Part shown: positions 13,923-41,280 of the stretch, piece by piece
Layout: every line of letters starts with the position of its first letter
How positions within the stretch are numbered: position 1 is the first letter of the stretch
Virus record (IMG/VR): IMGVR_UViG_3300047157_000186
DNA from: a virus
Lineage: Duplodnaviria > Caudoviricetes
Strand: one strand, 5' to 3'
DNA length: 64,000 bases
Made by a program: the position numbers and the translations under genes
The notes under the pieces: model-generated
Told to the model about the DNA's origin: nothing
The model's database searches: none
Seen by the model: the letters and a program-made list of their open reading frames with translations, nothing else

Positions 13923-14215
13923 TATCTAAATTTGTAGGAGAATGGGGATGGTTGACGGCTGTTGCGATAATAACATTTGCATTTAAAGATCTTGTTTCTA
14001 ATTTTGTAATAGGAGCACAGTTTTTATATGGCAATGATTACAATATAGATGATATAGTTTACATTAGAGGAGCTAAAAAGGCCAGAATAGTAAGACAAAA
14101 TATATGGAAAACTGTTTTTTATGTATATGGTCACGATAGAAAATTTATAGTTCCAAATAATATGTTATGGAGATTAGAAATAGAAAAAGACATACCAAAA
14201 AATGAAACACATTAA
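13910..14215 (+). CDS. Small MscS-like membrane protein
   Basis: TM helix followed by FKDLVSNFVIG...DDIVYIRG...FIVPN. Confidence 0.6.
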   Translation: MEEIVSKFVGEWGWLTAVAIITFAFKDLVSNFVIGAQFLYGNDYNIDDIVYIRGAKKARIVRQNIWKTVFYVYGHDRKFIVPNNMLWRLEIEKDIPKNETH

Positions 14216-14465
14216 AACACAAAAGATTTACGAAGATGCACAAAAAGTTGCTGACTTAAATCAAAAGATTAGAGATTTAGATAAAAAGAAAACCGATATC
14301 AAGATAAAGGCCGCTGATACTGCTAAAAAGCAAAGAGAAGAAGAGGATCCATTGAAATCCGAGTTACATGCGATCGCTGCACAAAAACTTTCTTTACAAG
14401 CACAAATAGTAAAATTAGATATTAAAACTGCTGCCATTAAAATAAGACAAGAAAATAATAAATAA
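14202..14465 (+). CDS. Coiled-coil protein with a partial CTS-like N-terminus
   Basis: MKHIKTQKIYED followed by heptad repeats. Confidence 0.6.
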   Translation: MKHIKTQKIYEDAQKVADLNQKIRDLDKKKTDIKIKAADTAKKQREEEDPLKSELHAIAAQKLSLQAQIVKLDIKTAAIKIRQENNK

Positions 14466-14489
14466 ACTTTTTTAAAAGGGTTTATATAA
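14464..14489 (+). promoter_or_regulatory. Putative AAAC-N17-TATAA promoter
   Basis: Exact spacing, directly before the ATG at 14496. Confidence 0.45.
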
Positions 14490-14495
14490 CTTAAG

Positions 14496-15095
14496 ATGAA
14501 ATACGTTAAAAGATATGAAGCTTATTTAAATGAAGCAAGAAGGCCAGGTAAACCATATCATGGGTCTAAAATTCTTGTATTTGATCTTGATGATACATTA
14601 GTTATATCTTCTGCAAAAATCAAGGTGTGTAATAAAAAAACAGGTGAATGTTATTCTCTAACACCTGAAGAATTCAATACATATGAAAAAGGTGAACATG
14701 AAGAATTAAACTTTGACGAGTTTAAATCTTTAGAGATTATGAAAGCCGGTAAATTAATAGAATATTATCTTAAAATATTCAAAGAAGCTTATAAGTCAAA
14801 ATTAGCAGTAGGAATTGTTACGGCAAGAGATGATCGTAAAATGATTCATAAATGGCTAAGAGAACACGTAGGATATAGAATTGATTATGAATTAATATTT
14901 GCAGTTAATGATCCTATTCACAAATTCAAAGGTAATATATCTGATCGTAAAAAAGCAGCATTCAAAGAACTTATAGAAATGGGTTACAATGATATGCAGT
15001 TTTATGATGATGACGATGCTAACCTAAAATTAGTAAAATCATTAGAAGACGAATACGATGGGATAAATATATCAACAATAAAAGCAATAAAATAA
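14496..15095 (+). CDS. HAD-superfamily phosphatase with a CTS-like N-terminus
   Basis: FDLDDT, VTAR, K, FYDDD motifs; MKYVKRYEAYLNE. Confidence 0.8.
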   Translation: MKYVKRYEAYLNEARRPGKPYHGSKILVFDLDDTLVISSAKIKVCNKKTGECYSLTPEEFNTYEKGEHEELNFDEFKSLEIMKAGKLIEYYLKIFKEAYKSKLAVGIVTARDDRKMIHKWLREHVGYRIDYELIFAVNDPIHKFKGNISDRKKAAFKELIEMGYNDMQFYDDDDANLKLVKSLEDEYDGINISTIKAIK

Positions 15096-15096
15096 T

Positions 15097-16710
15097 ATGA
15101 GTACATTCGGAGATATTAGAAATAACTTTCAGATTGCAATGAACAGAAAACAAGCTGAAATAAATGAGAAAGTCAAATATAATTACAAAAGAGAATTTTT
15201 TAACTCAGCATATACTGATTGGATGAAATCTGCTTCTTATCCAGGTGCGATCACTAAATTTGGTACAGGTGAACAATTAAGAGCAGATTTAGGGGTAGAA
15301 CCAACTGACAATACAACTCAAATGTTAATAGCATCTGGTTTACCTAAAGATTATTTTGAAATTGAAATACAATATCCTGGAGATGACAAATCACTTTCCG
15401 GAACATTTCCAACCGTAGTTGTTACGATACTAAAAGATATTAATATTGGAACTGAAACTTTTTTAAAAGGTGAAGAATATCTTATTGTAAGTAATGTGGC
15501 TAAAACAAAAACCGGAGAAAAAGCAATAATAGGAAGAGGTAAATTAACACCTAAGGCTCTAGGACTAGATGGAAAGGGAGCTACTTATGGAACAATAGAT
15601 ATTATATGTAAAGCAGCTATTGATGCAGTTGAAAAAAAATACGGTAACACCTTTCCTAAACCATACATAGACTATATTAAAGATCTAGTAGAGTATACTA
15701 GAAATCAAGATACATATAAAATTCCCGGGAATTTAAAAACATTTCTTAAAGAAGCAGGTCAAAGTTTTGAATTGGATTTTGGTAAAAATATACAAGAAGA
15801 ATATGGAATAGACTCGGTTTCATTAGCAAAAATAGCAAATGATTTTGGAGAAATATTAGGAGGTATATTTTTATTCAGTGCAGTTAGCGATCCTGGGACG
15901 GGCTTAAGTTTTCCACAAGGAGCAAATGCTGCGTTAGTAGATTTTCATTTTGATGGATGGGACATATCTTCAAAAGCTGGTAAAAAAGGAGGAACTCCAT
16001 CTATCGTCACGATGTGTGAAATAATACATAATAGAGTTTCTGATAAGAATTCCGAACAGAATTTTGTTTTAGACAAGTCTGAAAGAAAAACATATGATGA
16101 TATAATCAAAGTGATTGCTGATCCTAAAACAAATGGAGGATATACTAAAGAGCCTAATCAAGGAAGACAATCAAATGTATGGCTAACAAATATTGTTTTA
16201 GCAAATAGTCTTTTATATAACAATAAAACTTCCGGATATAGGTCTATTTTAGATAAATTAGGAATAAACAATATGGAAGTTTCTAGGCATATACTTCATG
16301 AAAAAGTAGATGAACTATTTAATAGAGATCAAGGAGAATGGTATAAAATAATGGATGAATTTTGGAGCAAAACAGGTTCCAGGCCTGATGGTTGTAAGAA
16401 TGAACAATCAGCAGTAACATATTATGCTAAAAGACTTAAGAAAAACGACCAATATAGGTTTGGTGTTATTTTTTATCCTATTTCTCAGGAACTAGTAAAA
16501 ACTATAAATAGCAATAAAGTATATGTTGACGGTTTATCTTCTATGGTAAACAGAGTCAGTTCAGTTCAACAGTTGTATTTATTAATAGGTGTAAAATCAA
16601 CAGGCATTCAATTTAAAATTAAAGATTTTGCAGCCGCAAGGTTTCAGTTTAGCGCAGGAACTGGGGCAAATGAGCCATTTAATAAAAACATAGGGCTTGA
16701 ATCTAGATAA
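15097..16710 (+). CDS. Large hypothetical protein, possibly PD-(D/E)XK fold
   Basis: DFGEILG...FP...N..LVDF...DISSK resembles the nuclease-fold motif order. Confidence 0.6.
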   Translation: MSTFGDIRNNFQIAMNRKQAEINEKVKYNYKREFFNSAYTDWMKSASYPGAITKFGTGEQLRADLGVEPTDNTTQMLIASGLPKDYFEIEIQYPGDDKSLSGTFPTVVVTILKDINIGTETFLKGEEYLIVSNVAKTKTGEKAIIGRGKLTPKALGLDGKGATYGTIDIICKAAIDAVEKKYGNTFPKPYIDYIKDLVEYTRNQDTYKIPGNLKTFLKEAGQSFELDFGKNIQEEYGIDSVSLAKIANDFGEILGGIFLFSAVSDPGTGLSFPQGANAALVDFHFDGWDISSKAGKKGGTPSIVTMCEIIHNRVSDKNSEQNFVLDKSERKTYDDIIKVIADPKTNGGYTKEPNQGRQSNVWLTNIVLANSLLYNNKTSGYRSILDKLGINNMEVSRHILHEKVDELFNRDQGEWYKIMDEFWSKTGSRPDGCKNEQSAVTYYAKRLKKNDQYRFGVIFYPISQELVKTINSNKVYVDGLSSMVNRVSSVQQLYLLIGVKSTGIQFKIKDFAAARFQFSAGTGANEPFNKNIGLESR

Positions 16711-16715
16711 AAAAT

Positions 16716-16741
16716 AAACCATTCTAAATTTATTCGTATAA
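16716..16741 (+). promoter_or_regulatory. Putative AAAC-N17-TATAA promoter
   Basis: Upstream of kdsA. Confidence 0.5.
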
Positions 16742-16762
16742 CATCTATAAACGAATATAAAA

Positions 16763-17509
16763 ATGCAAGATTACACATACATACTAGGTCCTTGTAGTAT
16801 TGAGAACGAGGACAACTTCATGTTAGTTGCTGAAACACTTTATCCATTAATGAATGGAAAAGATTGGTATCTTAAAGGCAGTTTCGATAAAGCTAATAGA
16901 ACTTCAATTCACTCTAATAGAGGTCCAGGTTTGGACGAAGGTATTAATATTATGAGAAATGTCAAAGATAGATTTCCTGATATTAAAATAGTTACTGACA
17001 TTCATGAAACAAGTCAAGCATTACCATTATCTGATGTGGTAGATGTAATTCAAATTCCAGCATTCTTATGTAGACAAACAGATCTATTAGTAGAGTGTGC
17101 AAAACATTTCAATACTATTAATGTTAAGAAAGGACAGTGGTTATCGGCAGATGCTATGAAACATGCTGTTACTAAAATTAAAGAAGTAAATCCTAATTGT
17201 CAAGTTTGGCTTACTGAAAGAGGTTCTAACTTTGGATATGATAGATTAATTGTAGATTTTAGAGGTGTTGATGTAATGAAAGAATTTGCAGACAAAGTTA
17301 TCTTTGATTGTACACACTCTACTCAAATGGCAGGTGACGGTATTACAGGAGGAAGTCGTAAATTGGCAAAGCAATATTCTCAAGCAGCTCGTATATTTGA
17401 ATATGATGGAGTGTTCGTTGAAACACACCCAGATCCTGAAAATGCCATCTCAGATTCAGGTAGTCAAGTAGAATTAGACTGGCTTGTAAATAATTTAAAA
17501 AATATTTAA
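16763..17509 (+). CDS. kdsA: Kdo-8-phosphate synthase
   Basis: GPCSIE, SFDKANRTS, QIPAFLCRQTDL, KKGQW, TERG, FDCTHS, ETHPDP. Confidence 0.93.
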   Translation: MQDYTYILGPCSIENEDNFMLVAETLYPLMNGKDWYLKGSFDKANRTSIHSNRGPGLDEGINIMRNVKDRFPDIKIVTDIHETSQALPLSDVVDVIQIPAFLCRQTDLLVECAKHFNTINVKKGQWLSADAMKHAVTKIKEVNPNCQVWLTERGSNFGYDRLIVDFRGVDVMKEFADKVIFDCTHSTQMAGDGITGGSRKLAKQYSQAARIFEYDGVFVETHPDPENAISDSGSQVELDWLVNNLKNI

Positions 17510-17605
17510 AAAAATAGTATTATATTAAGAAACTATATTATAAAACGTGATATATAATATAAGAGAACGATAAAGTTCTTGTCTCTAAAAATAACGTGTT
17601 TTATA

Positions 17606-17776
17606 ATGGCTGAATTAATTCCAGGAGCTGCGTCGGTTCCTGAGAGTGATTCAACAACCGTAGAAGTTACAAGTGTTAAGAATGATCAAGTATTCGAAGT
17701 AAACGTAGAAGATCTTCAAAACACTGCGGATGATTACGCAAATTGGGTCCATTTCGGGGTCGGTGGTCCAGCTTAA
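17606..17776 (+). CDS. 56-aa acidic peptide in its own transcription unit
   Basis: ATG at 17606 after GATATATA (17549) and a small hairpin; followed by a terminator. Confidence 0.65.
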   Translation: MAELIPGAASVPESDSTTVEVTSVKNDQVFEVNVEDLQNTADDYANWVHFGVGGPA

Positions 17777-17788
17777 ACAAACTCAATG

Positions 17789-17821
17789 AAAAAGCAGCCA
17801 AAAGGCTGCTTTCTTCTTTTA
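17789..17821 (+). terminator. Intrinsic terminator
   Basis: AAAGCAGCC-AAAA-GGCTGCTTT followed by a T-rich tail. Confidence 0.8.
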
Positions 17822-17823
17822 TG

Positions 17824-17849
17824 AAACAAAAGACGGATAAATAGTATAA
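17824..17849 (+). promoter_or_regulatory. Putative AAAC-N17-TATAA promoter
   Basis: TGAAAC-N17-TATAA upstream of 17885. Confidence 0.5.
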
Positions 17850-17884
17850 GTAATAAGAATTTAATTAAATAAAAAACAAAAATT

Positions 17885-18358
17885 ATGAGCACAACATTAA
17901 TTGTATTGGCATTATTAGCGGTAGCCGCTGGTGCCTATTTCCTTTTGATCAAAAAGGGTAAAATCGAAGATAAAGACGGTGACTTTATTGCAGACGTAGT
18001 AGAAGACAAAGTAGATTCTATTAAGAAAGAAGTAAAGCGTAGAGCTAAAAACGTTAAAGCTGAAATTGGTGATGTTAAAAAAGCATCTAAAGAATTATTG
18101 GATCAAGCATCTGATGTTGCAGAAGCAGCAGCAGGTAAAACTAGAAAAGGTAGAAAACCAGCTGCTAAAAAAGCGCCAGCTAAAAAGAAACCAGCTAAAA
18201 GAAAAGCTAAAACTGGAAAAAATGTATCTAGTGGATCAGGTTCTGGTGCAGGTGAAATTATAGGAGGATCAGGAAAGGGTAGTTCTAGTGGATCAGGTTC
18301 TGGAAAAGGTTCTGGAAAAGGTTCTGGAAAAGGAAAAGGTGGTTCTGGAAAGAAATAA
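17885..18358 (+). CDS. Membrane-anchored protein with a histone-like Lys/Ala segment and a Gly/Ser tail
   Basis: N-terminal TM, KPAAKKAPAKKKPAKRKAK, GSGKG repeats. Confidence 0.75.
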   Translation: MSTTLIVLALLAVAAGAYFLLIKKGKIEDKDGDFIADVVEDKVDSIKKEVKRRAKNVKAEIGDVKKASKELLDQASDVAEAAAGKTRKGRKPAAKKAPAKKKPAKRKAKTGKNVSSGSGSGAGEIIGGSGKGSSSGSGSGKGSGKGSGKGKGGSGKK

Positions 18359-18390
18359 GAATATATAAATAAAAATATACAATCAAAAAT

Positions 18391-20406
18391 ATGTCATCAT
18401 TTATAAATTTCAATAATAAAAATGACTCTGCAATAAATTTATATTCTGCAGAAGTAATTAAAGAAGCTTTATTGATATCTGAAACTAAAAGTCCTATTAA
18501 AGCTACTAAAATTGTAGAGGATATTAAAGAACCTGTTGTATTAAACGAGGCTTTAAATCTTTTTACAGATAAATTAACAGCGGTTAAATCACTATCTAGT
18601 GCTATAATTACAGTAAATGAAGGTAGAGTTAAGCAATTTGAAATGGATTTCAAAGATATGGTTAATGATATTAAAAAAGGTTATGGTTGGATAGATCCTG
18701 AATATGTTGCCCAAACTTGGGACAATTCTAGTGATTCTATTGACTTCAGTTTAGTAAGAGATGAAATATTTGATAGATTAATTGATGCTGGTTTATTAGC
18801 ACATCCAGATCCTAGTAATCCTGAAAAAGCAGGTAAGAAACTTAAATCAGCCAAAGAATTATATGCATTCGAAAATAATGAAACTAAGTTAGAAGAAGGC
18901 AAATCAATTACTAAAATTCAAAAAGAGTATGGCCAAGTTGTAAAAGACATGGTAACTACTGTTGAAGAATGGAAAGCAGCTGAAGGTGACAGAAAGACTG
19001 AACTATTAGAAAAACTAAGAGCATTAACTGCACAGAAAAAAGATTTACTATCTCAATTAGACGATGCTGTAGGTTTAAAAGATGTTCATGCAGAATTAGC
19101 TGAATCAGTAGTTATTACTGAAGGTTCTAGTAAAGAATTTGAAAAAGCTCTTGCACATTATGCGGAAATTGGTGGACATTCAGACAATGGTCGCGGAGAC
19201 TTAGTTGATGCTTATTGGAAATTGTTAAATAAAAAGCAACGTGATGAATATTTTATGCCATTGGCACATGCGCAATATGCTAAAAATCATAAAGTTGGTT
19301 GGGCAAAAGAAGTTACTGAACATCACAGCGAAAATCCAAATGACAAATATGAAGTAAGACATTGTGATAAACCAGAAACACCATATGGTGTTTGGGAAGG
19401 CGATACATTAGTTAAATGTTTTGAACTTGAAGAAGATGCATTTGCTTTTGCTAAAGAACAAAATAAAGAACAAGGCTTAAGTGAAAATAGAGAATTAATG
19501 GCAATAGATTCTTATTTAAATACAAAAGACGAAGAAGTTTTAATCGATTTCTTAGACGATGCATATGGAAATTCCGATGATAGAAAAACTAGAAAAGAAT
19601 GGGAAGATGCAAGAAAAGATCTTGGTTATAGTGAATTAGTTGATTATGCAGTAGCTCATGCTGAAAACTTTGGTATGGACTTACAAGATATAGAAGATGC
19701 TATAGAAGTTTATGAAGCAAAAACAATCAATGAAAAAGATGATGCTGGAACACACTTAGACAATTTAGCTGATTTAGTAGGAAATGCTAAATCATTTATG
19801 AATGTTGGTAAAGAATTAAAAGCTGGTAATTACAAATATGACTTTAGTACTGGTATGATGCCAATGTATATGATAAAAGCAGACGGTTTTAAATTCGCAA
19901 TACTAAACAAGAAGTATGTTGATGGTGGTGATAGAGAAGTTGGAGATATTGCAATTGGTTTAATGGAATCAGTGAATGAAAGAAGTTATGGTCAGAATTC
20001 AGATGATGCTTTAATACTTATTCAACAAGCACTTAAAGGAATGAAAAACATGAAGGCTGAAATCAAAGGCGATACTGTAATTATTTCTAATAAAGCTAAA
20101 GATGAATTTACATACTCATTAAATGACGGCGGTGATGTTCAAGAATTTATTGACGAATTAGAAGAATCAGTAGTTGAAGTAACATTAGATTCACTAGTTG
20201 AAAAATTTGCATTAGACACTGAAGTAAATGAAGATATTAGAGGTGATGTAAAAAAATTCATTAGAGATAATAAAGAAGTATTAAATGATTTAGCAGATCA
20301 AGATTTATGGGATGAAATGTATCAAAAACTATATGATGAGTTTGGTGTAGATGCAGATTCTATTAAAGCTAAAGATCTATTAAAGACTTTTCAATTCGTA
20401 TTTTAA
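18391..20406 (+). CDS. Putative multi-module internal head polyprotein
   Basis: Acidic, with short modules separated by recurrent [ILV]xE sites; GAATATATA upstream (18359). Confidence 0.6.
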   Translation: MSSFINFNNKNDSAINLYSAEVIKEALLISETKSPIKATKIVEDIKEPVVLNEALNLFTDKLTAVKSLSSAIITVNEGRVKQFEMDFKDMVNDIKKGYGWIDPEYVAQTWDNSSDSIDFSLVRDEIFDRLIDAGLLAHPDPSNPEKAGKKLKSAKELYAFENNETKLEEGKSITKIQKEYGQVVKDMVTTVEEWKAAEGDRKTELLEKLRALTAQKKDLLSQLDDAVGLKDVHAELAESVVITEGSSKEFEKALAHYAEIGGHSDNGRGDLVDAYWKLLNKKQRDEYFMPLAHAQYAKNHKVGWAKEVTEHHSENPNDKYEVRHCDKPETPYGVWEGDTLVKCFELEEDAFAFAKEQNKEQGLSENRELMAIDSYLNTKDEEVLIDFLDDAYGNSDDRKTRKEWEDARKDLGYSELVDYAVAHAENFGMDLQDIEDAIEVYEAKTINEKDDAGTHLDNLADLVGNAKSFMNVGKELKAGNYKYDFSTGMMPMYMIKADGFKFAILNKKYVDGGDREVGDIAIGLMESVNERSYGQNSDDALILIQQALKGMKNMKAEIKGDTVIISNKAKDEFTYSLNDGGDVQEFIDELEESVVEVTLDSLVEKFALDTEVNEDIRGDVKKFIRDNKEVLNDLADQDLWDEMYQKLYDEFGVDADSIKAKDLLKTFQFVF

Positions 20407-20407
20407 A

Positions 20408-20484
20408 TTGTTCGTAACTTTTTAAAAATAAAAAGCCAAATATTTTTTTATTTGGCTTTTTTTTGGTATATTAGTAGTATAATT
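20408..20484 (+). promoter_or_regulatory. Composite early promoter, copy 1
   Basis: TTGTTCGTAAC at 20408-20418; TATATTAGTAGTATA at 20467-20481. Confidence 0.75.
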
Positions 20485-20499
20485 AAAAAACAAATAGAG

Positions 20500-20874: not shown

Positions 20875-20883
20875 AAAAACATT

Positions 20884-21384: not shown

Positions 21385-21415
21385 GATATATAGATTATAA
21401 AAAATATATTTTATT

Positions 21416-21718
21416 ATGAAACACACAAAAATGTTTGAAGACTTTATAAACGAATGTGAATGCGGAGGTAATTGCTCATGTGAATCTTCTAAAAAACAAC
21501 CTATTGTAGAAGCGAACGCTGATGGTACTATTTCAGATGACGAAGATGAGAGAAGAGAAGAACTAGAAATGGAAGTATATAATGAAGCAAAATCATTTGC
21601 AGAATCTGTAAAAGAAAGAGCTTATGAAATAGGTGGAAGCTTTAGAGGACCAGGTATTCAATCTGACGTAACTAAGCAAATCAAAAAAGCGTTTAAGGAT
21701 GCTAAATTTAAATTATAA
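21416..21718 (+). CDS. CTS-motif protein
   Basis: MKHTKMFEDFINE; GATATATAGATTATAA upstream at 21385. Confidence 0.75.
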   Translation: MKHTKMFEDFINECECGGNCSCESSKKQPIVEANADGTISDDEDERREELEMEVYNEAKSFAESVKERAYEIGGSFRGPGIQSDVTKQIKKAFKDAKFKL

Positions 21719-21723
21719 TTATT

Positions 21724-22074
21724 ATGAAACACGTAAAACTATTCGAAGATTTTACTAATGAAACTTCTCATTTAACTAAAAAAAGCAGAGCTGGTCTTTC
21801 TAAAAAAGAAACTTTAAAGGTTGCACAGAAATTTGCAGATGCTCTTACAAAATTAGACGGTAAAGAATACACTGTTAGTGATGATTATGAAGAGGACTCA
21901 TTCGACCTAGATATTGACGGAGACGAATATGCAGGTGGTTCATATAACATTAATTCTGATGGTACTGTAGTTAATATGGCAGTTTGGAATAGTTCTAATG
22001 AATCTCCAGTATATGGTGATAAAGATGATGATGTTAAAACCATTATTAAAAAAATAAAAAAATTAAACTTTTAA
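21724..22074 (+). CDS. CTS-motif protein
   Basis: MKHVKLFEDFTNE. Confidence 0.75.
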   Translation: MKHVKLFEDFTNETSHLTKKSRAGLSKKETLKVAQKFADALTKLDGKEYTVSDDYEEDSFDLDIDGDEYAGGSYNINSDGTVVNMAVWNSSNESPVYGDKDDDVKTIIKKIKKLNF

Positions 22075-22076
22075 TT

Positions 22077-22385
22077 ATGAAAAAAGTAAAATTGTTTGAA
22101 GAGTACGTGAGCGAGTCAAGAGGTGATTTTCAAATATATCACAGAACATACTCTTCAACTATAGACGAAATTGAAAGATACGCAGCAGTAAAGGGTTATC
22201 ATCTTGATAGTGAGGAATATGGTAATGCATATGTTGATGCATTCTTTAAACCAAAAGAAGGTGCAACTAAAAAAGATACATTAAGTTTATATAAAAACGA
22301 CAAAGAACAAAAGAAAGCTTTACATGTTCAAATATACGGTAGAAGTGGAACAGCTGGATATGAATTAAATATGTACATTAATTAA
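22077..22385 (+). CDS. CTS-motif protein
   Basis: MKKVKLFEEYVSE. Confidence 0.75.
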   Translation: MKKVKLFEEYVSESRGDFQIYHRTYSSTIDEIERYAAVKGYHLDSEEYGNAYVDAFFKPKEGATKKDTLSLYKNDKEQKKALHVQIYGRSGTAGYELNMYIN

Positions 22386-22396: not shown

Positions 22397-23425
22397 ATGG
22401 CAAAAGTATACACAGTATGGGGATCTAACCCAGAAAAAGGTAACCGTTTTGATAAAGCTGAAGAATGGATAGCAGCTTTATTTGAATCTGAAGAAGAAGC
22501 AAACGACTTTAAAGAAGCTGAAAGCAAAAATTACAAATTTATAGAACAGACTATTTATGATACTAATAAGGGTATACGTGTAGCTAGTGGTTTTCATAGT
22601 GCTAGAATTTTTTGTGAAGATATGACTAAAAACAAGGCTAAAAAAGAATTACTAAATTTAAACACTAGGTGTTCAGCATACTTTAATAATCCTATAGAAG
22701 CCGGAAGTTACGTTAAATTCGATAAAAATGGATTTGTTGATGGTAAAGGATATGATTTTTATTCCAATGAGGATAATAAAATCCAAGAATCTAAAAGGAC
22801 ATTAAAATCCTTTGTAGAGGTAAAGTTATTTGAAGAGTTTATAAACGAAGCAAGACAAGCACCTGCTAAGAAACTATTTAAAATGATAGTTAATGGTAGT
22901 ACTTCTGAAATTGAAGGAGTTAAAATATCTAAAGATATGGCTCAAGCGGCATTAGATTGGTTTGATAGATCTACTTACGCTAGAAAATATGAAAAGCAAG
23001 TTAAGACTGCTGGTATGGGCGCTGTAGCTCCACTAATCTTTGGAGATAATTGGGGTATTAAGAAAACTATTTCCTCTAAACTTAAAACTGAATTTAAAGA
23101 ATTACAAACACAGTATAAAAGAGCGGTAACTGAAAGTGTTAATGAATCAGCAACTGATTTATTAGCCGATGAAATTGATGATGCAAAAGTATATGATGCT
23201 TTTTCAGACGGTCAATCAGTAAATGCTAGATCAACTGCTAAAACATGGGACGATGGAGTTCCTGTATTAAAGTATATTGCTAGAGCTTCTAAAAAAAGTG
23301 TTAAATTACCCAAAGAATTTAAAGTAGTAGATGATACTAAATATGGATGGTGGTATTTTTTTAGTGCAGGAAAATGGCATGGCATCCAACAAAAAGATTA
23401 TGGAACACCTCCATTTGAATACTAA
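22397..23425 (+). CDS. Multi-module protein with an internal CTS-like motif
   Basis: Internal VKLFEEFINE and VTESVNES. Confidence 0.7.
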   Translation: MAKVYTVWGSNPEKGNRFDKAEEWIAALFESEEEANDFKEAESKNYKFIEQTIYDTNKGIRVASGFHSARIFCEDMTKNKAKKELLNLNTRCSAYFNNPIEAGSYVKFDKNGFVDGKGYDFYSNEDNKIQESKRTLKSFVEVKLFEEFINEARQAPAKKLFKMIVNGSTSEIEGVKISKDMAQAALDWFDRSTYARKYEKQVKTAGMGAVAPLIFGDNWGIKKTISSKLKTEFKELQTQYKRAVTESVNESATDLLADEIDDAKVYDAFSDGQSVNARSTAKTWDDGVPVLKYIARASKKSVKLPKEFKVVDDTKYGWWYFFSAGKWHGIQQKDYGTPPFEY

Positions 23426-23715: not shown

Positions 23716-24507
23716 ATGTTATTAATTTCTAACAGAGGTAATATTAATGGTCCTAATTCACTTTTAGAAAATACACCAGATTATATAGACTCAACGATAG
23801 ATCAAGGGTATAACGTAAAAATAGATTTATGGTATATTCATGATAAATGTTTTTTAGGACAAGATGGTCCTAAAAATGAAGTTTCATGGGAATGGATTAT
23901 TAAAAATGCAGATTATTTATGGGTAAATTGCATGAATACATCAACATTTTCATTTCTACTAGAAAATGCCAAACCACTAAATTTTTTTTATAATAAATTA
24001 GATTCAATAGCAATGACTTCTCAAGGATTTGCATGGTCTAATAACAATGATTTTTCAAAAGGCACAATAGTCTATAATACAGATGCAATTGAAGGTGTAT
24101 TAGGTGTATGTTCAGATACTGTATCTAAATGGTCAAAACAGATAGCCATATGTTTTTATGGTGAAGCTGGTCTGCCTAACAAGAAAACCATAAAGAATCA
24201 TAAGGATAATATGATAACTCCTCTAACAGAGTTGGGATATCATCTGGAATACTATGGCTCTAAACGATTAAATCACAAAGAGAATGATCTTAAATTTAAT
24301 AAGATATATAATTTTAAAGGATTACGTTCTCATTTAGCTGATAACGAGAAAGAATCTGATGACTTGGATAAAACTCACATTGCTTCAATATATGAAATGA
24401 TAGGTTCTCATCCATATGAAACAGCATTCTTTATACGTTGGGACCAAAAGTTAACAAGCACAGAGATAATTGATCATATAAAAACATACGATAAAAATGA
24501 AAATTAA
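23716..24507 (+). CDS. GDPD/PLC-like domain (degenerate) fused to a short GT-like domain
   Basis: ISNRGN, GYNVKIDLW; C-terminal IAICFYGE; TATAAATA at 23699-23706. Confidence 0.6.
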   Translation: MLLISNRGNINGPNSLLENTPDYIDSTIDQGYNVKIDLWYIHDKCFLGQDGPKNEVSWEWIIKNADYLWVNCMNTSTFSFLLENAKPLNFFYNKLDSIAMTSQGFAWSNNNDFSKGTIVYNTDAIEGVLGVCSDTVSKWSKQIAICFYGEAGLPNKKTIKNHKDNMITPLTELGYHLEYYGSKRLNHKENDLKFNKIYNFKGLRSHLADNEKESDDLDKTHIASIYEMIGSHPYETAFFIRWDQKLTSTEIIDHIKTYDKNEN

Positions 24508-25834
24508 AAAAACATTTAAACAATTTAATTTAGAATCAATCAATGAAGGTCAATTCTCATGGATTACTTATGATACTGATGTACAAATAGGTTCTGAAAG
24601 AGAAAACACTATTGATGTATACATGTTTGATAACGAAGGTAATCAATGGCATGAAAAGAAATATGAAGGTTATGGCGTATTTGGTAACATGGACTATTAT
24701 GAGTTATTAGCCAAAATGAATGGTTATACAGAAGAAGACTTAGAAAATAAAGCAGTACTTAAAGCTATTAGAGCAATGGGTAAAGCAGAAATGAGAGATA
24801 TTGGTATTACTTTAGCTTTCGAACCTAAGAAATTAAAAACTAAAGCAAAAGGTAATAAAGTCCTATTCCCTGCATTAGTTGAAAATCCAAAGTTTCCATG
24901 GAAAAGACATGACTTTACTGAAGAAGCAGAAACTGATCCAAATCAATCATGGTATCAAGAACCTGAGTATGATGATTATGAAGATGATGACGATTACGAA
25001 CAAGGTTGGTATGAATCTAATAATTTATTTCCTACATTTGATGATTATACAAATATCAACGAAAATAAATTTGACGGTATTGCAGATTTAGTAAAATCTT
25101 TACATTTCGAAATCGATCCTAAAACTGCTGAAGAAAAAAAGATTGAAATAGGTTACAGACAAGGAGAAGTTACAAAGCGTAAACAAATCGAAGGTGGTGA
25201 ATATTCTTTAAAAAGATTTAGAAAAGAAGTTAAATATGGTGATGGAACTTATTTAGGTGTATTTATACCTGGTTCTTATGATGCTGCAGTCTCTTCATTA
25301 GGAGATGGACCACATGCAAAAAAGGTTAAGAAAGTAAATTGGAACCAAAGAAAATATGACAAATGGATTTCTGATTTAGCATATGATAATGACGGTGGTG
25401 GACAAGATTCAAGTTATGGTTTTGAAATGGCACAAAATGCTAAATTTGAGCCAGGACTTATTGCTTTTGTTAAAAGAAGTAATAGAGGTGAAGATCCATT
25501 ACAAAGAATTCAATGGGACATTGAAGCTGCAATGGAATCAGTAGTCATTAATGTTAATGAAGCTAAAGTAAGTTTAGAAAAACTAAAAGAATTTGTATCT
25601 AAGCATTTGAGATTCGTAAGTACTTCAGATGAATTTGATGGAACAGAAGGCGGATTATGGGCTTCTGCTGAAGATGCTGATATGTATAAAGGAAGAAGAA
25701 TTTACGATTATTACTCTGAAGATCACAAAAATTACACATTCGGTGTACTCAATTCATGGGAAAAAGAACTAAACAAAAGAGGATATTATAGTGAATATTA
25801 TGACGCAGGTACAGTGATGATCTGGGAAGAATAA
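24497..25834 (+). CDS. Three-module putative head polyprotein
   Basis: MKIKKTFKQF..SINE; internal TFDDYTNINE; NVNE. Confidence 0.65.
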   Translation: MKIKKTFKQFNLESINEGQFSWITYDTDVQIGSERENTIDVYMFDNEGNQWHEKKYEGYGVFGNMDYYELLAKMNGYTEEDLENKAVLKAIRAMGKAEMRDIGITLAFEPKKLKTKAKGNKVLFPALVENPKFPWKRHDFTEEAETDPNQSWYQEPEYDDYEDDDDYEQGWYESNNLFPTFDDYTNINENKFDGIADLVKSLHFEIDPKTAEEKKIEIGYRQGEVTKRKQIEGGEYSLKRFRKEVKYGDGTYLGVFIPGSYDAAVSSLGDGPHAKKVKKVNWNQRKYDKWISDLAYDNDGGGQDSSYGFEMAQNAKFEPGLIAFVKRSNRGEDPLQRIQWDIEAAMESVVINVNEAKVSLEKLKEFVSKHLRFVSTSDEFDGTEGGLWASAEDADMYKGRRIYDYYSEDHKNYTFGVLNSWEKELNKRGYYSEYYDAGTVMIWEE

Positions 25835-25927: not shown

Positions 25928-26668
25928 ATGAAGAAAATAAAATTATTTGAACAATTTATTGATGAAGGTGTTCATGATCAAGGAATTCTTAAGGCATTCT
26001 TTATGGCAGGTGGACCAGGTTCTGGTAAATCATATGTTGCTACAGAACTTTTTAATTTTCCAAAAGGAGTAGTAAGTTCGGTGTCATATGCAACAGGATT
26101 GAAACTAGTCAATAATGATAATGCGTTTGAAGCAGGATTAAAAAAAGCAGGTTATAGCCCTGCTGATTTATCTAAATTAGCCAAAGATCCAGAAGAATGG
26201 GAAAAAGTAATGGTAATCAGAGATAAAGCTAAAGGACTTACTAAAAGAATGCAAAATAATTACTTAGGCGGAAAATTAGGTCAAGTAATTGACGGTACTG
26301 GTAAAAACTTTGATAAAATAAAAGGACATAGAAATTTATATCGTGATATGGGATATGATTGTTATATGGTATTTGTAAATACATCATTAGATATTGCATT
26401 AGAGAGAAACAGAATGAGAGAACGTAAACTTGAAGACAAGATGGTTGAAAAGATGTGGAAAGAGGTTCAAGATAACTTAGGTAAATTTCAAAAATTATTC
26501 GGAGCAGGTAATATGTTAATTGTAGATAATTCTGAATATGGAGGTGATATTTTAGCTCAAATAGAAAAACAAATTGCTAAACAAATTTCTAAACCAATTA
26601 AAAATCCACTAGGAAAACTTTGGATTAAAGGACAATTAGAAAATAAAGATAAAAATAAACCATTCTAA
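25928..26668 (+). CDS. Zeta-toxin-like P-loop kinase with a CTS-like N-terminus
   Basis: MKKIKLFEQFIDE; AGGPGSGKS; VIDGTG; FVNTSLDIALERNRMRER. Confidence 0.8.
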   Translation: MKKIKLFEQFIDEGVHDQGILKAFFMAGGPGSGKSYVATELFNFPKGVVSSVSYATGLKLVNNDNAFEAGLKKAGYSPADLSKLAKDPEEWEKVMVIRDKAKGLTKRMQNNYLGGKLGQVIDGTGKNFDKIKGHRNLYRDMGYDCYMVFVNTSLDIALERNRMRERKLEDKMVEKMWKEVQDNLGKFQKLFGAGNMLIVDNSEYGGDILAQIEKQIAKQISKPIKNPLGKLWIKGQLENKDKNKPF

Positions 26669-34176: not shown

Positions 34177-34204
34177 AATAAATAATAAAAATAAATAATA
34201 AAAA

Positions 34205-36097
34205 ATGGCACTACCACAAGGAATACAAAGAGTTAACTTTTTATCAGCATCCGCTCCAAGTGATGGAATAATACATTCTATTGCACAAAAGGGTGGATAT
34301 CAAGAAATCTATCATCAGAATGATTTCCCTACAATTACATGTTTTGAAAACAGTGATTCAGCATATACTGGTTTCACTTTATCAGATGACATATGGTCTT
34401 CAGGTAGAAGAAGAGCCGGTATGTTGGTTTTTGTAATGAAAACAAAACAATTTTTTAATTTAATTCCAGTAGGTTTTGTTGGAAACGGAGGAGATTTACT
34501 TGAAGCTGATTGGATTAATATGCCTGAGTGGGAAAGAGCATTGAGAATTGATCCTTCAGGAACTTATTGTTCTGAAGGAGCAACTCCAGCAAATGGTTTT
34601 ACTGCTGTACAAAAAACAGCTGCAGATATAGGAATATCTGCAGATCCAATGGGATGTTGGATAGAAACAAGTATCGGAACTAATGGAGTTGATGGAGCAG
34701 ACGGAGCTGATGGAGCACCAGGAGCTGATGGAGCCGATGGAGCACCAGGAGCCAATGGAGTTGATGGAGCTGATGGAGCACCAGGAGCCGATGGAGCCGA
34801 TGGAGCTGATGGTCAAGATTATGAAAAAGTATTAGATTTCTGGTCTGAAGGAGCAGAATTCTATAAAGTAGGTCAAGATTCAGAATATGAAAATAGTGTT
34901 AACAATAGAAATCCTAACTTATATGTATGTAAAGGTGAAACTTATACATTTAGAAGATCTACTGGAGGGCATCCATTAAATATTTTTAGTCAAAACGGTA
35001 ATATCGCTGCAGGAATTGTTAGTGGTAGTTTACCAGTTGTTGAAAATGCAGATTTAGTGTGGAAAGTACCACAAGATGCGTTTGGAACATATACATATGT
35101 GTGTACTGCACATGCAGGTATGACAGGAACAATAACAGTATGTTGTGCTGACGGAACTCCGGCTCCAGATCCAACTGCAACACCAGTTCCTCAACCAGAT
35201 CCAACTGCAACGCCAGTTCCTCAACCGGATCCAACTGCAACGCCAGTTCCAGATCCAACTGCAACACCAGTTCCTGAGCCAACTGCAACACCAGAAGCAC
35301 CTAAAGATGTGTATACATTTGGTGTAAATGTAGCTGACGGTGCAGGAGATATTGAAAATAAAGAAGCATGTGAAGATTTAAAACATCCAATATATACTTC
35401 AGATAAAGCAGATCCAATGCAATTAACTATAGGTGATCGTTTATGGCAAGACGTTGAAACAAGTGTGCCATTTAATGGTAGCGACAGATGGTATGATATA
35501 GGAAATGAAGGAATTCCAAAATTAAAAGTTAAAGTTAGAGGCGGTGAAATAGTATCAGTTGCTGATTGTCCAGGAGATTCTCCGGATCCAACACCGCAAC
35601 CAGATCCAACTGCAACACCGCAACCAGATCCAACTGCAACACCGATTCCACCAACACCTCAACCAACTGATAGTTCAGGTGATGGAAACGGTCCAACACC
35701 AACTGCAACACCAGATAGACCTGAGGATAAATACACAACTACATGGACATTTGAAGAAGCTTCACAAGATCCAACTTATAAAATAGTTTCAGGTACAGGT
35801 AGTAGTAGAAATGAGGAAGAAGATCTAACATCATTTAGAACTCCTGCAGTAAGTAAAGAAACTTCTACTAACCATTACTTATGGATTGTTAGAAGAGACG
35901 GACAACCTATTACTAATTCGGCAGTTGCACGTCTAGAACTAGAAGGTTCTGCTCAACAACATATTGTTAATCAAAATGCTATAAGAGTACAAATACCAAT
36001 TACTCAAGCAGAAGGAGATAGAACATACACTGGAACATTAATTACAAATCCTGAAGGAGGCGAAGGAGGCGAAGGAGAAGGAGATGATCCAAGGTAA
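34205..36097 (+). CDS. Fibre protein: domain Y, collagen, cupredoxin-like domain, Pro-Thr repeats
   Basis: [12 protein letters not shown]; GADGAP repeats; GHPL...YVCTAHAGMTG. Confidence 0.75.
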   Translation: MALPQGIQRVNFLSASAPSDGIIHSIAQKGGYQEIYHQNDFPTITCFENSDSAYTGFTLSDDIWSSGRRRAGMLVFVMKTKQFFNLIPVGFVGNGGDLLEADWINMPEWERALRIDPSGTYCSEGATPANGFTAVQKTAADIGISADPMGCWIETSIGTNGVDGADGADGAPGADGADGAPGANGVDGADGAPGADGADGADGQDYEKVLDFWSEGAEFYKVGQDSEYENSVNNRNPNLYVCKGETYTFRRSTGGHPLNIFSQNGNIAAGIVSGSLPVVENADLVWKVPQDAFGTYTYVCTAHAGMTGTITVCCADGTPAPDPTATPVPQPDPTATPVPQPDPTATPVPDPTATPVPEPTATPEAPKDVYTFGVNVADGAGDIENKEACEDLKHPIYTSDKADPMQLTIGDRLWQDVETSVPFNGSDRWYDIGNEGIPKLKVKVRGGEIVSVADCPGDSPDPTPQPDPTATPQPDPTATPIPPTPQPTDSSGDGNGPTPTATPDRPEDKYTTTWTFEEASQDPTYKIVSGTGSSRNEEEDLTSFRTPAVSKETSTNHYLWIVRRDGQPITNSAVARLELEGSAQQHIVNQNAIRVQIPITQAEGDRTYTGTLITNPEGGEGGEGEGDDPR

Positions 36098-36121
36098 TTA
36101 ATTAATTAAATTAATTTTATT

Positions 36122-36151
36122 AAAAGAGAGGCTTTTTGCCTCTCTTTTTTT
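36122..36151 (+). terminator. Intrinsic terminator
   Basis: AAAAGAGAGGC-TTTTT-GCCTCTCTTTT followed by Ts. Confidence 0.85.
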
Positions 36152-36205
36152 GTTTCCACGTTTTTAATTTAGATATATAAAAAAAGAAAAATAATTTAAT
36201 TTATA

Positions 36206-39200
36206 ATGGCTTTACCACAAGGAATACAAAGAGTTAACTTTTTATCTCATTCAGCACCATCTGAAGGTTTAATACATTCTATCGCACAAAAGGGTGGTTA
36301 TCAAGAAATGATAACAGTTGGAGAAAGAAATAGTATACCTCTTTTTGAAAATGGAGTTTCAACATATACAGGTTTTACAATATCGGATGACATTTGGTCA
36401 TCAGGTAGAAGAAGAGTTGGTATGATGATTCATGTTGTAGAAGATAAAAAAATATTTAATTTAATTCCCGTTGGTTTCTTTGGAAACGGTGGTGATTTAG
36501 GAGAAGCTGATTGGTTAGCTTTACCAGAATGGGAAAGAGCATTAAGAATAGATCCTGCAGGAACTTACTGTGCTGCGGGTGCAACTCCAGCAAATGGTTT
36601 TACTGCTGAACAAAAAACGGCTGCAGATATAGGAATATCTAATGATCCTAATGGATGTTGGGTAGAATTATCATTATCTGGAGAAAGCGGAGCTGATGGA
36701 ACTTCAGGTGTAGATGGAGCTGATGGAGCACAAGGAGTAAATGGGAACGATGGAACTTCAGGTGTAGATGGATCCTCAGTAAATTTCATGACTACTTCAA
36801 CTGATATACACTCAAATAATGCAAACGGTACTTTAACAGTAGATCCTGGATTATCTTATATAGGTGGCGAATATATTTCGATTACACAACCATTAGATAT
36901 GACTAATGTACAAATTGCAATAGTAACTGCTTACAGTAATACGCAATTAACATTTTCACACGTATCAAATAACGGTAACTTATTAAATAGTAACGGTCCT
37001 TGGATTATTAATCTAAGTAGTGTACCTGGTCAAACAGGAGCAGATGGAACATCAGGAGTTGATGGAAACGATGGAACTTCTGGTAGTAATGGAACTTCTG
37101 GTATTAATGGACTCGCTGGAACTTCAGGAAATGACGGTGTTAATGGAACATCAGGAGTTGATGGAACATCAGGAAAAGATGGTTCTAATGGAGAAGATGG
37201 TGAAGATGGAGTTAATGGAACTTCTGGTATCAATGGAACTTCTGGTATCGATGGAACTTCTGGTATCGATGGAGTTAGTGGAACTTCTGGTATAGATGGA
37301 ACTTCTGGTATAGATGGAACTTCTGGTATTAATGGAACTTCAGGAGTTGATGGAAACGCTGGAACTTCTGGTGTAGATGGAACTTCTGGAACAGATGGAG
37401 ATTCAATAGAATTTGCAACTTCATTTAATGGTCCACATAGTCTCGGTGAAGACAGAAATCCAGGTAACCAAGATTTAGGTTCGGTAACAGTAGATACTGG
37501 TTTATCATATCAAGGTGGTGAATACGTTATAGTATCTTTAGATGCCAGTCCGGATGATTTTGATATAGTACAAGTAACTTCATATGATAGTTCTACTGGT
37601 GTAATGATGTGGAATAACGTTTATCAAAGTACAGAATCTTCATTTAGTTCTAATTGGAATATCAACTTAACTGGTATACCAGGTATTAAAGGTGATGATG
37701 GAGCTACAGGTGCCGATGGTGTTGATGGTAGAGGAATCTCTTCTATTACAATAGACGACGATGGTAACATGATAATTGTTTATACGAACGGTGATGGTGC
37801 TACTTTACCAAATGTTGGCGGTGAAGATGGAACATCTGGAGTAGATGGAACTTCTGGTGCAGATGGAACTTCAGGAGTTGATGGAACTTCAGGTATTAAA
37901 GGAGAAGATGGAACTTCAGGAATTAATGGTATAGATGGAACTTCAGGTGTAACACCAATAAAAGGTGAAGATTATACTGATGGAACTTCAGGAAAAGACG
38001 GTGCAGATGGAACTTCAGGAGTTGATGGAAACAATGGAACTTCTGGTGCAGATGGAACTTCAGGAGTTGATGGAACTTCAGGTATTAAAGGAGAAGATGG
38101 AACTTCAGGAGTTGATGGTCCACGAGGTGGAGTAGGACCAGGTGTTAATTTTAAAGGAGAAGTTGAAACAGAAGCAAATTTACCGGAAGAAGGCAATCAA
38201 CAAGGTGACGCATATATTGTACAAGCAGATGATAGTTTCTGGATGTGGAACGGAACAAATTGGATTAATGGTGGATCAATACAAGGTGCATCAGGAACTT
38301 CAGGTAAAGATGGAACCTCAGGAGTTGATGGAAACGATGGAACTTCAGGAGTAGATGGAACTTCAGGAAAAGACGGTGAAGATGGAACTTCAGGTAGAGA
38401 TGGCGCAGATGGTACATCTGGAGCTGATGGTGCTGATGGTGATCATGGAACATCAGGTATAAGCGGAACTTCAGGTACAACTCCAATAAAAGGTGAAGAT
38501 TATGTAGATGGAACTTCAGGAAAAGACGGTGAAGATGGAACTTCAGGAGTAAGCGGAACTTCAGGAGTTGATGGAACTTCAGGAGTTGATGGAACTTCAG
38601 GTAGAGATGGAACATCTGGAATTAATGGTACATCAGGTGCAACACCAATAAAAGGTGAAGATTATAACGATGGAACTTCAGGAATTAATGGAACATCAGG
38701 TGTAACACCAATAAAAGGTGAAGATTATGTAGATGGAACTTCAGGAAAAGACGGCGAAGATGGAACTTCAGGTAGAGATGGAACTTCAGGAATTAATGGT
38801 ACATCTGGAATTAACGGTACATCTGGAATTAACGGTGTAAACGGAACTTCAGGTGTAAACGGAACATCTGGAATTAATGGTACATCAGGTATAAGTGGAA
38901 CTTCAGGTGTAACACCAATAAAAGGTGAAGATTATACTGATGGAACTTCAGGAAAAGACGGTGAAAATGGAACTTCAGGTAGAGATGGAACAAGTGGATC
39001 TTCAGGAGTAACTGGTAATCCAGGAACATCAGGTGTAAGTGGAACTTCTGGTGTAAGTGGATCAAGTGGATCTTCAGGAACTGATGGATCGAGCGGATCT
39101 TCGGGAAGAAATGGAACTTCAGGTATAACGCCAATAAAGGGTGAAGATTATGTAGATGGAACTTCAGGAAAAGACGGTGAAGATGGAACTTCTGGTATAG

Positions 39201-40939
39201 ACGGAACATCTGGAACTAATGGTTCTTCTGGATCTTCAGGTGAAGATGGTGGTAGAGGAAATGATGGAAGTTCAGGAACTGATGGAACTTCAGGTAAAGA
39301 TGGATCAAGTGGAACTTCAGGATCAAGTGGTTCTTCAGGAACTAATGGATCAAGTGGAACTAATGGTACATCAGGTACAACACCAATAAAAGGTGAAGAT
39401 TATGTAGATGGTGAAAACGGCACATCAGGTAAAGATGGAACTTCAGGTAGAAATGGTGAAAATGGAACATCAGGATCAAGTGGAACTAACGGAACTTCTG
39501 GTACAGATGGTAGTTCAGGTTCGAGTGGAAGCTCAGGAACTAATGGAAGTTCAGGAACTAATGGTACAAGTGGAACTAATGGAACTAGCGGAAGCTCAGG
39601 TTCATCAGGAACTAACGGAACTTCAGGTATAACACCAATAAAAGGTGAAGATTACACTGATGGAACTTCTGGAAAAGATGGAACTTCTGGAACTTCTGGA
39701 ACTAACGGAACTTCTGGTACAGATGGTAGTTCAGGTTCGAGTGGAAGCTCAGGAACTGATGGAAGTTCAGGAACTGATGGAACTTCTGGTTTAGCTGGAA
39801 CTTCAGGTAAAGATGGAACTTCAGGTATAACACCAATAAAAGGTGAAGATTATACTGATGGAACTTCAGGTAAAGATGGAACTTCAGGTACAAATGGTAC
39901 TTCTGGAACAAATGGTACAAGTGGAACTGACGGTTCTTCTGGAACAAATGGTACAAGTGGAACTGACGGAACAAGTGGAACTGACGGAACTTCTGGTACT
40001 AATGGTAGTTCAGGTACAACTCCAATAAAAGATGAAGATTATACTGATGGAACTTCAGGTAAAGATGGAACTTCAGGAACTGATGGAACTTCAGGTAAAG
40101 ATGGAACTTCAGGAACTGATGGATCAAGTGGAACTGACGGGACTTCAGGAACTGATGGAACTTCAGGAACTGATGGAACTTCAGGAACTGATGGAACAAG
40201 TGGAACTGATGGAACTTCAGGTGTAACACCAATAAAAGGTGAAGATTATACTGATGGAACTTCAGGTAAAAACGGAGACCCTGGAACTTCAGGTACAAAT
40301 GGATCAAGTGGAACTGACGGAACTTCAGGAACTGACGGAACTTCAGGAACTGATGGAACAAGTGGAACTGACGGAACTTCAGGAACAAACGGTACATCAG
40401 GTAAAACACCAGTAAAAGGTGAAGATTATACAAATGGAACTTCAGGAACAAACGGAAGCTCAGGTACAAATGGAACTTCAGGAAGAGATGGTAGTGGAAC
40501 TAGTGGAACTTCAGGTAATTCTGGATCGCGTGGAACAGGATCATGTTGGGAACATATAGCTCTTAATCCAGTTGCAAGAGACGTAACAGTCACAAATAAT
40601 GGATTGCAAAAGGCATTCGTAAAGGTGCCATTTACATTTGAAAATGAAGGATATGAATTAAGATGGATAGAATCATCATATGGTACTGTTAATAACACAG
40701 CTAACGTAGTATATACTTTAAACGGTGTAAGTAGCAACGGTGCAGTAAGTAGCATTGCAACATGGACACATAGTGCTAATAATAAATTTGCAATTTCACC
40801 GGTAATGGAAAAAGTAAATACTGACTCTAAATATTTATATGTTACAGCTTCAAATCAAGACTTTTCAGCAAAAGGATTTACTGTAACCTTAGAGTTTGTG
40901 AACAATGATAGTGACTGTTATGATTACACAGATATGTAA
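36206..40939 (+). CDS. 1577-aa collagen-like fibre: domain Y plus GTS/GxD triplets with 12 TPIKGEDY-type interruptions
   Basis: Gly every third residue over long tracts; a duplicated TV(D/E)..LSY.GGEY domain; GAGATATATA upstream. Confidence 0.85.
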
Positions 40940-40962
40940 TAAAAATAGAATATATAATTAAC

Positions 40963-41280
40963 ATGGTAAAATTATTTGAAGATTTTTTAAATGAGAAGAA
41001 TTTACAAGTCCAAGTTAGAGATCACGTTATTAGATATAGGTTAACATATCAATATGGTAAAGGTGGATTTATAACAATGGCAAGTAATAGCAAAGAATTA
41101 GATAAACAAATAGAGATTGACAATCCAATGGAAATAGGCAAGGCTATTGAAAATTCTATTAATGCGGAGCTTAAAAAACTTAGACAATTATTTACTGTAG
41201 AAGAAGATCATGGTTATCAAGGAGCTGGATATGCTTTTTATATTGTATTTGATGATCTATTAAAATTATTAAATAAGTAA
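40963..41280 (+). CDS. CTS-motif protein
   Basis: MVKLFEDFLNE; GAATATATA at 40948. Confidence 0.75.
   Translation: MVKLFEDFLNEKNLQVQVRDHVIRYRLTYQYGKGGFITMASNSKELDKQIEIDNPMEIGKAIENSINAELKKLRQLFTVEEDHGYQGAGYAFYIVFDDLLKLLNK

Follow-up and report, generated by a model that had tools for sequence, protein, structure and literature searches.

The closest described counterpart of the leader family treated here is the capsid targeting sequence (CTS) of phage T4. The CTS of the T4 internal proteins IPI, IPII and IPIII, like the propeptides of Alt, is removed by the prohead protease gp21 (Mullaney & Black 1996, as cited in PMC9026906 and PMC3012670). Mutational work on the T4 CTS assigns targeting mainly to residues 4 and 7 and processing to residues 8 and 10 (PMC9026906), and gp21 prefers I/L-x-E (PMC12991175). 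The leader family is found in a stretch of 64,000 nucleotides (nt) from the IMG/VR virus record IMGVR_UViG_3300047157_000186 (Duplodnaviria; Caudoviricetes), which is called the window below and means the whole 64-kb stretch with its 85 called open reading frames (ORFs). A short N-terminal peptide recurs there on otherwise unrelated proteins. It is probably a cleavable head-loading tag of the T4 type, carried by proteins of an uncultured marine T4-type jumbo phage. Since the tag matches the T4 head-loading peptide, the tagged proteins, two RNA-repair enzymes included, would probably be packed into the head and delivered along with the DNA.

A conserved CTS on diverse T-even internal proteins is already known (PMC3012670), and a review suggests the CTS as a general mechanism of T4-like phages (PMC9026906). 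At the polymorphic internal-protein loci of T2, T6 and other T-even phages, the CTS-like start alone is conserved on diverse proteins (PMC3012670; PMC9026906). These loci and the window family have in common one conserved leader and changing cargo, read as an arms race with host defences. At the T-even loci the proteins are few, small and basic, and the phages are close T4 relatives, whereas the window family covers dozens of cargo clusters in marine and freshwater uncultured jumbo phages. In the phiKZ-like giants (201phi2-1, phiKZ, SPN3US), the propeptides of ejection or inner-body proteins are cut after Glu by a gp21-related protease (PMC9026906; PMC5694885). As in the reading proposed for the window, many head-internal proteins are matured at short Glu motifs and much protein is delivered with the DNA. 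The phiKZ-like giants belong to a different lineage, however, with long and varied propeptides, and no single short shared N-terminal tag is described in PMC9026906 or PMC5694885. Polyvalent proteins injected by phages (Iyer et al. 2017, as cited in PMC7824862) are large and multidomain, and the passage on them in that citing paper describes no short portable leader. Phage P1 loads the Dar anti-restriction proteins into its capsid (PMC9024508; PMC12810830). Both systems share with the window reading counter-defence or takeover enzymes that are pre-loaded in the virion, with several activities per chain. Dar loading is tied to DarA, Hdf and head morphogenesis (PMC12810830), whereas in the window a short tag and standard linkers would address the cargo.

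The T4 CTS and the window tag are both N-terminal peptides of about ten residues, in which positions 4 and 7 are aromatic, position 8 is aliphatic and position 10 is Glu, with a small residue next. Both stand on unrelated cargo, and the phage lineage of each has an S77 protease, a portal and gp23 of the T4 type. Unlike the T4 CTS, the window tag usually has three additional leading residues (MKx). The tag load also differs, with six or seven tagged genes in the window compared to three or four in T4. In the complete relative G002 the strict tag is found on 13 of 347 ORFs, most of which cluster in an island at 193-200 kb, and in the relative G001 a strict or loose tag is found on 19 of 208. The cargo of the window lineage goes beyond small basic proteins to enzymes and acidic proteins. 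The combination with internal linkers in multi-module chains is a further difference from the T4 CTS.

Tag copies in the window and the T4 capsid targeting sequence

The N-termini encoded at 14496, 21416, 21724, 22077, 25928 and 40963 fit the pattern MK..K[LMR][FY]E.[FY][ILVT].E, and all tag copies in the window lie in coding frames of the + strand (Table 1). The N-termini quoted in the original prediction were all found at their positions on this strand, as was the internal copy VKLFEEFINE in the protein encoded at 22397. A six-frame scan of the window with the core pattern [FY][EK][DEQA][FY][ILVT][NSDT]E gives exactly seven matches. Six of these sit 4-6 residues past the first Met, in ORFs that open 6-17 codons past a stop, and the seventh is internal, spanning residues 145-153 of the protein encoded at 22397. 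When the residues within each of the 85 ORFs were shuffled 1000 times, the expected number of matches was 0.014 anywhere and 0.002 at the N-terminus, and the maximum was one. The leader is thus 11-13 residues long and lies at the extreme N-terminus of the precursor, with one additional internal copy. With the tag removed, the window cargos have no mutual blastp similarity at E<=1e-3, which bears out the earlier statement that the downstream sequences are unrelated.

Two members named previously fared less well. The leader MKIKKTFKQF...SINE of 24497 is present and closes in ESINE/G (here and below a slash marks the junction), but it is looser and longer, at 17 residues, and falls outside the six-ORF set. 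The partial copy reported at 14202 is not convincing. It shares only MKHIK and a possible IYE site, the aromatic pair is absent, and neither the strict nor the loose motif scan picks it up, so it is left out of the count. Another loose candidate lies at 12970.

Synonymous codons vary freely between the window copies (TTT/TTC, CTA/TTG/TTA, GAA/GAG), so what is conserved is the peptide and not the DNA, and an RNA-level signal was rejected on this ground. The same variation bears on a broader nucleic-acid explanation, in which the leader would enhance translation initiation or act as a recombination 'handle' when gene cassettes are swapped. An AT-rich coding start does favor initiation, but this is a role that internal copies cannot serve. 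Cargo swapping at the tag boundary does occur, but cassette exchange, perhaps a side benefit, would leave the conservation of the aromatics and the Glu unexplained. The peptide motif is also kept across relatives whose cargo is just 45-66% identical, and a nucleic-acid feature appears very improbable.

The T4 record NC_000866 has MKTYQEFIAE/A at the start of both IPII and IPIII, verifying the IPIII peptide that had been used for comparison, while IPI opens with MKTFKEF... and closes in ...ITE/A. In a BLASTP comparison, the internal 22397 copy aligns with IPII from position 1 without gaps (VKLFEEFINEAR aligned to MKTYQEFIAEAR). VKLFEEFINE-AR and the IPII start MKTYQEFIAE-AR are identical at 7 of 12 positions and positive at 10 of 12, with a pair E value of 0.008. 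The match is confined to these first 12 residues and no IPII similarity was found beyond the leader; on this comparison the window cargos are not IP homologues. The ungapped alignment means that the window tag corresponds to the ten-residue T4 tag with three leading residues (MKx), and in 40963 Met alone stands ahead of the T4-like ten residues. CTS positions 4, 7 and 10 are F/Y, F/Y and Glu in all seven window copies. Position 8 is I/L/V in six of the seven, and Thr in 21724.

Portability, distribution and cargo

The kinase encoded at 25928 is directly preceded by x-x-E/G in 13 of 13 viral-contig homologues and in the annotated Melnitz and HTVC008M genes. Among these kinases the leaders vary, from the canonical tag down to short T4-like ones (MKTFAELQE/ in Melnitz, for example), and some homologues have an additional module of about 70 residues between the tag and a second ..INE/G junction. 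The 21724 module, at 34 metagenome loci, is found either stand-alone behind the tag or in long polyproteins after hydrophobic-x-Glu junctions. Ala comes next in most of the polyprotein junctions ahead of this module, and many have the form E[ST].V.E. In two relatives (L160, L161) a 21724-type module is inserted behind homologues of modules one and three of the 671-residue protein encoded at 18391. The second module of that protein sits in G002 behind a canonical tag and an EAVVTE/A linker, and the G002 phosphatase homologue has no tag. The last modules of the multi-module proteins at 22397 and 24497 are 44% and 39% identical, respectively, to the stand-alone tagged proteins L067:13863-14204 and L036:2054-2377.

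Since tag, linker and no tag interchange before the same fold, the leader appears to be an address label and cutting site and not part of the protein function. An AlphaFold2 (AF2) model of the 21724 protein, built with 24 homologues, has a predicted local distance difference test score (pLDDT) of about 50 for residues 1-20 and above 90 for residues 21-116, so the tag is no part of the 21724 fold. The modeled module had no PDB match at E<=0.001. At the level of sequence, these comparisons show one tag on unrelated cargo, and show it to be portable.

The strict 13-residue tag was searched as a degenerate DNA pattern in IMG/VR and in 596 Gb of bacterial and archaeal genomes. The tag is restricted to viral contigs, with at least 120 stretches in those of IMG/VR and a single stretch in the bacterial and archaeal genomes. 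Among the matches listed, 103 were inspected, and nearly all lie a few codons from an upstream stop (median about 4). The 93 complete tagged ORFs among the matches listed form, together with the window set, 48 blastp clusters of cargo.

Pfam searches with 42 representatives of the cargo mostly gave no family. The exceptions are a Tad3 anti-Thoeris domain, DUF5824, DUF5661 and GNAT, and there are sub-threshold matches to Acb1 and to the 2H (2'-5' RNA ligase) superfamily, at 21.9 bits each (cut-off 27). The Tad3 protein (L094:6015-6770) consists of the tag, a 26-residue spacer ending in SINE/G and the Tad3 domain (75 bits). Tagged cargo in relatives also includes proteins with weak matches to RNA-repair enzymes. 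Judged by these domain assignments, the tagged cargo fits a delivered arsenal.

A wider proposal, which we hold with about even confidence, is that a widespread uncultured T4-type jumbo-phage lineage uses the T4 tag as plug-and-play addressing. A single leader of 10-13 residues and standard protease-site linkers would add any gene or module to a large virion-delivered arsenal that includes an RNA-repair kit (kinase, phosphatase, ligase-like and nucleotidyltransferase) and immunity inhibitors (Tad3, possibly Acb1/2H-like), and this arsenal would act before phage gene expression. In the literature on capsid targeting, jumbo or huge phages, cyanophages and metagenomes, no description was found of the tag family, its scale, or its enzyme and anti-defence cargo. 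Should the tag function as it does in T4, sequence alone would reveal proteins in the head of an uncultured phage, and the head cargo would show which host defences need to be beaten in the first seconds of infection. The T4 principle, demonstrated in T-even coliphages only, would then extend to a distant, environmentally abundant lineage and to a much larger and more modular cargo set of enzymes, anti-defence proteins and multi-module chains. The combination of tag, Glu junction and linker provides a testable annotation rule for hundreds of 'hypothetical' proteins, and a second, naturally diverged tag is on offer for protein-packaging vectors.

The head module of relatives and the case for head loading

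No head genes were found in the window, and the head module was therefore studied in relatives. G001 (166.6 kb) encodes a kinase 66% identical to the window 25928 kinase. G002 (256,444 bp, complete, with terminal repeats) shares with the window a phosphatase (57% identical), a kinase (61%) and other genes. Peptidase_S77 is present in six of six large tag-bearing IMG/VR records tested, in a frame of 600-650 residues (that of G006 ends at the contig edge) and beside portal and gp23 genes of the T4 type. The S77 protease of G001 is encoded at L141:7483-9411, and that of G002 in L189. In G001 this frame matches phrog_207, a head-maturation-protease family of 519 positions, over residues 8-536. The G001 gene order is T4-type portal (PF07230), a 134-residue acidic protein, the protease-scaffold gene and gp23 (PF07068). 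The 134-residue protein opens with MRYVKLFEQFIKE, and its position is that of T4 gp67/gp68. The other five records have a homologous gene of 114-130 residues at the portal-protease position, with a tag-like leader in each. A tag-like leader between portal and protease in six of six records places the tag on a conserved head-module member adjoining the protease. The capsid protein of the tagged lineage is nearest to those of Lak phages and Tenacibaculum phage PTm1, and these nearest relatives suggest a host among the Bacteroidota.

Directly past gp23, G001 encodes a 513-residue Lys/Glu/Ala-rich protein (L141:4258-5799) that begins in a tag-like way (..LMLFEEFTQ..) and has a single hydrophobic segment. 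This protein had no Pfam or PHROGs match, and may be a further head-internal protein of the lineage.

The small acidic gene at the gp67/gp68 position is the best-anchored tagged protein in the six relatives, and by position it is scaffold-core-like. This would agree with a leader that is a prohead-directed propeptide on core components or zymogens, which are cut and then degraded or expelled, or merely activated, without delivery. Several window cargos are acidic, as is T4 gp67. However, cargo such as the kinase, the phosphatase, Tad3 and GNAT has no evident prohead use and would be useful only in the host cell, and in T4 the same tag class delivers IPI*, a host restriction inhibitor (PMC3012670). 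We consider this alternative unlikely.

Head loading followed by delivery is the preferred reading. By analogy with T4, we infer docking, cleavage, retention and injection. The two aromatics at CTS positions 4 and 7 would dock the precursor to the scaffolding core during prohead assembly. A T4-type (S77) prohead protease would cut past the last Glu of the leader, where P3, the third residue ahead of the cut, is aliphatic. The freed cargo would be retained in the head and would exit with the DNA at infection. The ES..E linkers and the internal tag copies may serve as additional cut sites, so that several small proteins would be released from one chain. In the window, the predicted cargo comprises the kinase and phosphatase as a split pair for RNA end-healing, four small proteins, and modules from two or three polyproteins.

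Several observations weigh against head loading. The protease is seen in relatives only, and their kinases are 51-66% identical to that of the window. The T4-form tag pattern has no matches in three cultured phages (Melnitz, HTVC008M, PTm1), and in PTm1 no leader of this kind heads the gene between portal and protease. The P3 residue of 21724 is Thr and not I/L/V. Sites of the form [IL]xE are not depleted in the cargo domains, with an observed to expected ratio of 1.03 compared to 1.08 in other proteins. Several cargos are acidic, with an isoelectric point of 4.8, whereas T-even internal proteins are basic according to a review (PMC9026906). The kinase and phosphatase are ordinary cytoplasmic enzymes, and the phosphatase of a relative works untagged. 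Tagged genes show no enrichment for an upstream T4 late promoter TATAAATA, which, with at most one mismatch, precedes 25% of them and 27% of the other genes.

The negative late-promoter test is in keeping with a docking or regulatory peptide for a non-capsid partner, such as a chaperone or a Clp-type ATPase, or with a degradation or localisation signal. A ClpB-like AAA+ protein is encoded in the window at 59805-61292, and short amphipathic N-terminal helices have many uses. This explanation leaves out the residue-by-residue match to the T4 tag, the tag on the gene between portal and protease in six of six relatives, and the swap with internal hydrophobic-x-Glu linkers. A Sec or lipoprotein signal peptide was rejected because the leader is too polar and acidic, and too short. 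A non-capsid role is accordingly judged improbable, and head loading remains preferred. The portable packaging tag of the original prediction is partly supported, by its likeness to the T4 CTS, its I/L-x-E end, its virus-specific distribution, its co-occurrence with S77 in six of six relatives and its portability, but not by enrichment of late promoters.

A different upstream element is shared by some tagged genes. The 14-nt box ATATAGATTATAAA occurs on the + strand at 21388-21401 and 25899-25912 only, and with flanks the two copies are identical over 17 nt. Each lies 13-16 nt ahead of the start codon of the gene that opens a tagged run (21416 and 25928), and the copy upstream of 25928 is accompanied by a terminator-like hairpin. 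A one-mismatch copy is found ahead of a tagged G002 gene. The shared form ATATAGAyTATAAA, 13-16 nt before three tagged genes, is a candidate promoter.

Individual genes and other features of the window

Table 1. Tagged genes, multi-module proteins and a doubtful member of the family in the window; a slash marks the junction.
Feature	Coordinates	Strand	Tag, leader or junctions	Product
Tagged gene	14496..15095	+	tag nt 14496-14534, MKYVKRYEAYLNE then A	186-residue HAD-type phosphatase cargo
Tagged gene	21416..21718	+	tag nt 21416-21454, MKHTKMFEDFINE then C	87-residue cargo, Cys-rich start
Tagged gene	21724..22074	+	tag nt 21724-21762, MKHVKLFEDFTNE then T	103-residue alpha/beta module
Tagged gene	22077..22385	+	tag nt 22077-22115, MKKVKLFEEYVSE then S	89-residue cargo
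Tagged gene	25928..26668	+	tag nt 25928-25966, MKKIKLFEQFIDE then G	233-residue P-loop kinase cargo
Tagged gene	40963..41280	+	11-residue tag nt 40963-40995, MVKLFEDFLNE/K	94-residue cargo
Multi-module protein	22397..23425	+	internal tag VKLFEEFINE/AR nt 22820-22849; ESVNE/S linker nt 23132-23146	342 residues
Multi-module protein	24497..25834	+	looser leader nt 24497-24547; ESVVINVNE/A linker nt 25535-25561	445 residues
Candidate cargo polyprotein without canonical tag	18391..20406	+	five junction-like sites: IITVNE/G 18604-18621; ESVVITE/G 19102-19122; GLSE/N 19474-19485; ESVNE/R 19966-19980; EVNE/D 20221-20232	671 residues
Doubtful member	14202..14465	+	starts MKHIKTQKIYE	87 residues, basic, coiled-coil-like

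The 14496 cargo resembles the phosphatase half of polynucleotide kinase (phrog_415, 1.9e-11, residues 22-182). Its homologue in L186 has an 11-residue leader of T4 length, MFLRFQQYLTE/. The 25928 cargo matches the kinase families AAA_33 (2.4e-8) and phrog_12810 (2.4e-38). From these family matches, the 14496 phosphatase and the 25928 kinase look like the split halves of an RNA end-healing enzyme.

The cargos of 21416, 21724, 22077 and 40963 had no family in Pfam and PHROGs. Exact copies of the 21724 protein are listed for 408 sample blocks, and a 100%-identical Joint Genome Institute (JGI) contig spans 30 kb. Samples with this phage include the sources of ENA ERZ23499365 and JGI Ga0209666. In the 22397 protein, residues 143-224 have a weak match to phrog_2667, annotated 'internal head protein' (E 0.016). 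The polyprotein gene at 18391 has TATAAATA at 18364, 27 nt ahead of its ATG.

A megablast search of window positions 14000-27000 against the phage collection gave no match, nor did a tblastn search with a 537-residue neighbour. No tRNA and no Rfam family were found in the window.

The fibre-like proteins encoded in the region 27660-42825 are very large and contain collagen-like G-x-y repeats as well as linkers of the PTATPVP type, rich in Pro and Thr. Those at 28904, 34205 and 36206 have a common N-terminal domain. The tagged gene at 40963 starts 24 nt past a collagen-like fibre gene of 1577 residues, and the protein encoded at 41284-42825 has a C-terminal end resembling a Hint/intein-like domain.

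Several apparent sugar-nucleotide genes, and one confirmed glycosyltransferase, lie at 1-3765 and 42890-47338. Judged from their N-terminal sequences, the genes at 16763-17509 and 58031-58735 resemble those of the 3-deoxy-D-manno-octulosonate (KDO) pathway (kdsA-like and kdsB-like). The sugar genes suggest that the phage remodels a host or virion glycan.

A region of about 7 kb at 47950-54950 has a G+C content of about 0.40, compared to 0.31, with genes on the opposite strand and gene-poor gaps on both sides. It encodes a KaiC/DnaB-like P-loop ATPase (48686-49591) and a phrog_1362 protein (50215-51369), and looks like an element inserted in the phage genome.

Judged from N-terminal sequences, a thymidylate synthase appears to be divided into N- and C-terminal portions between two ORFs, 55397-55918 and 55911-56315, which overlap in different frames. 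A frameshift, a split gene or an assembly error could account for this arrangement, and another gene, ThyA-like, is found at 61849-62703. The ClpB/Hsp104-like double-AAA+ gene that starts at 59805 stops inside the second ATPase domain at 61292 and is followed by a 67-residue ORF (to 61559), and it may be split or interrupted.

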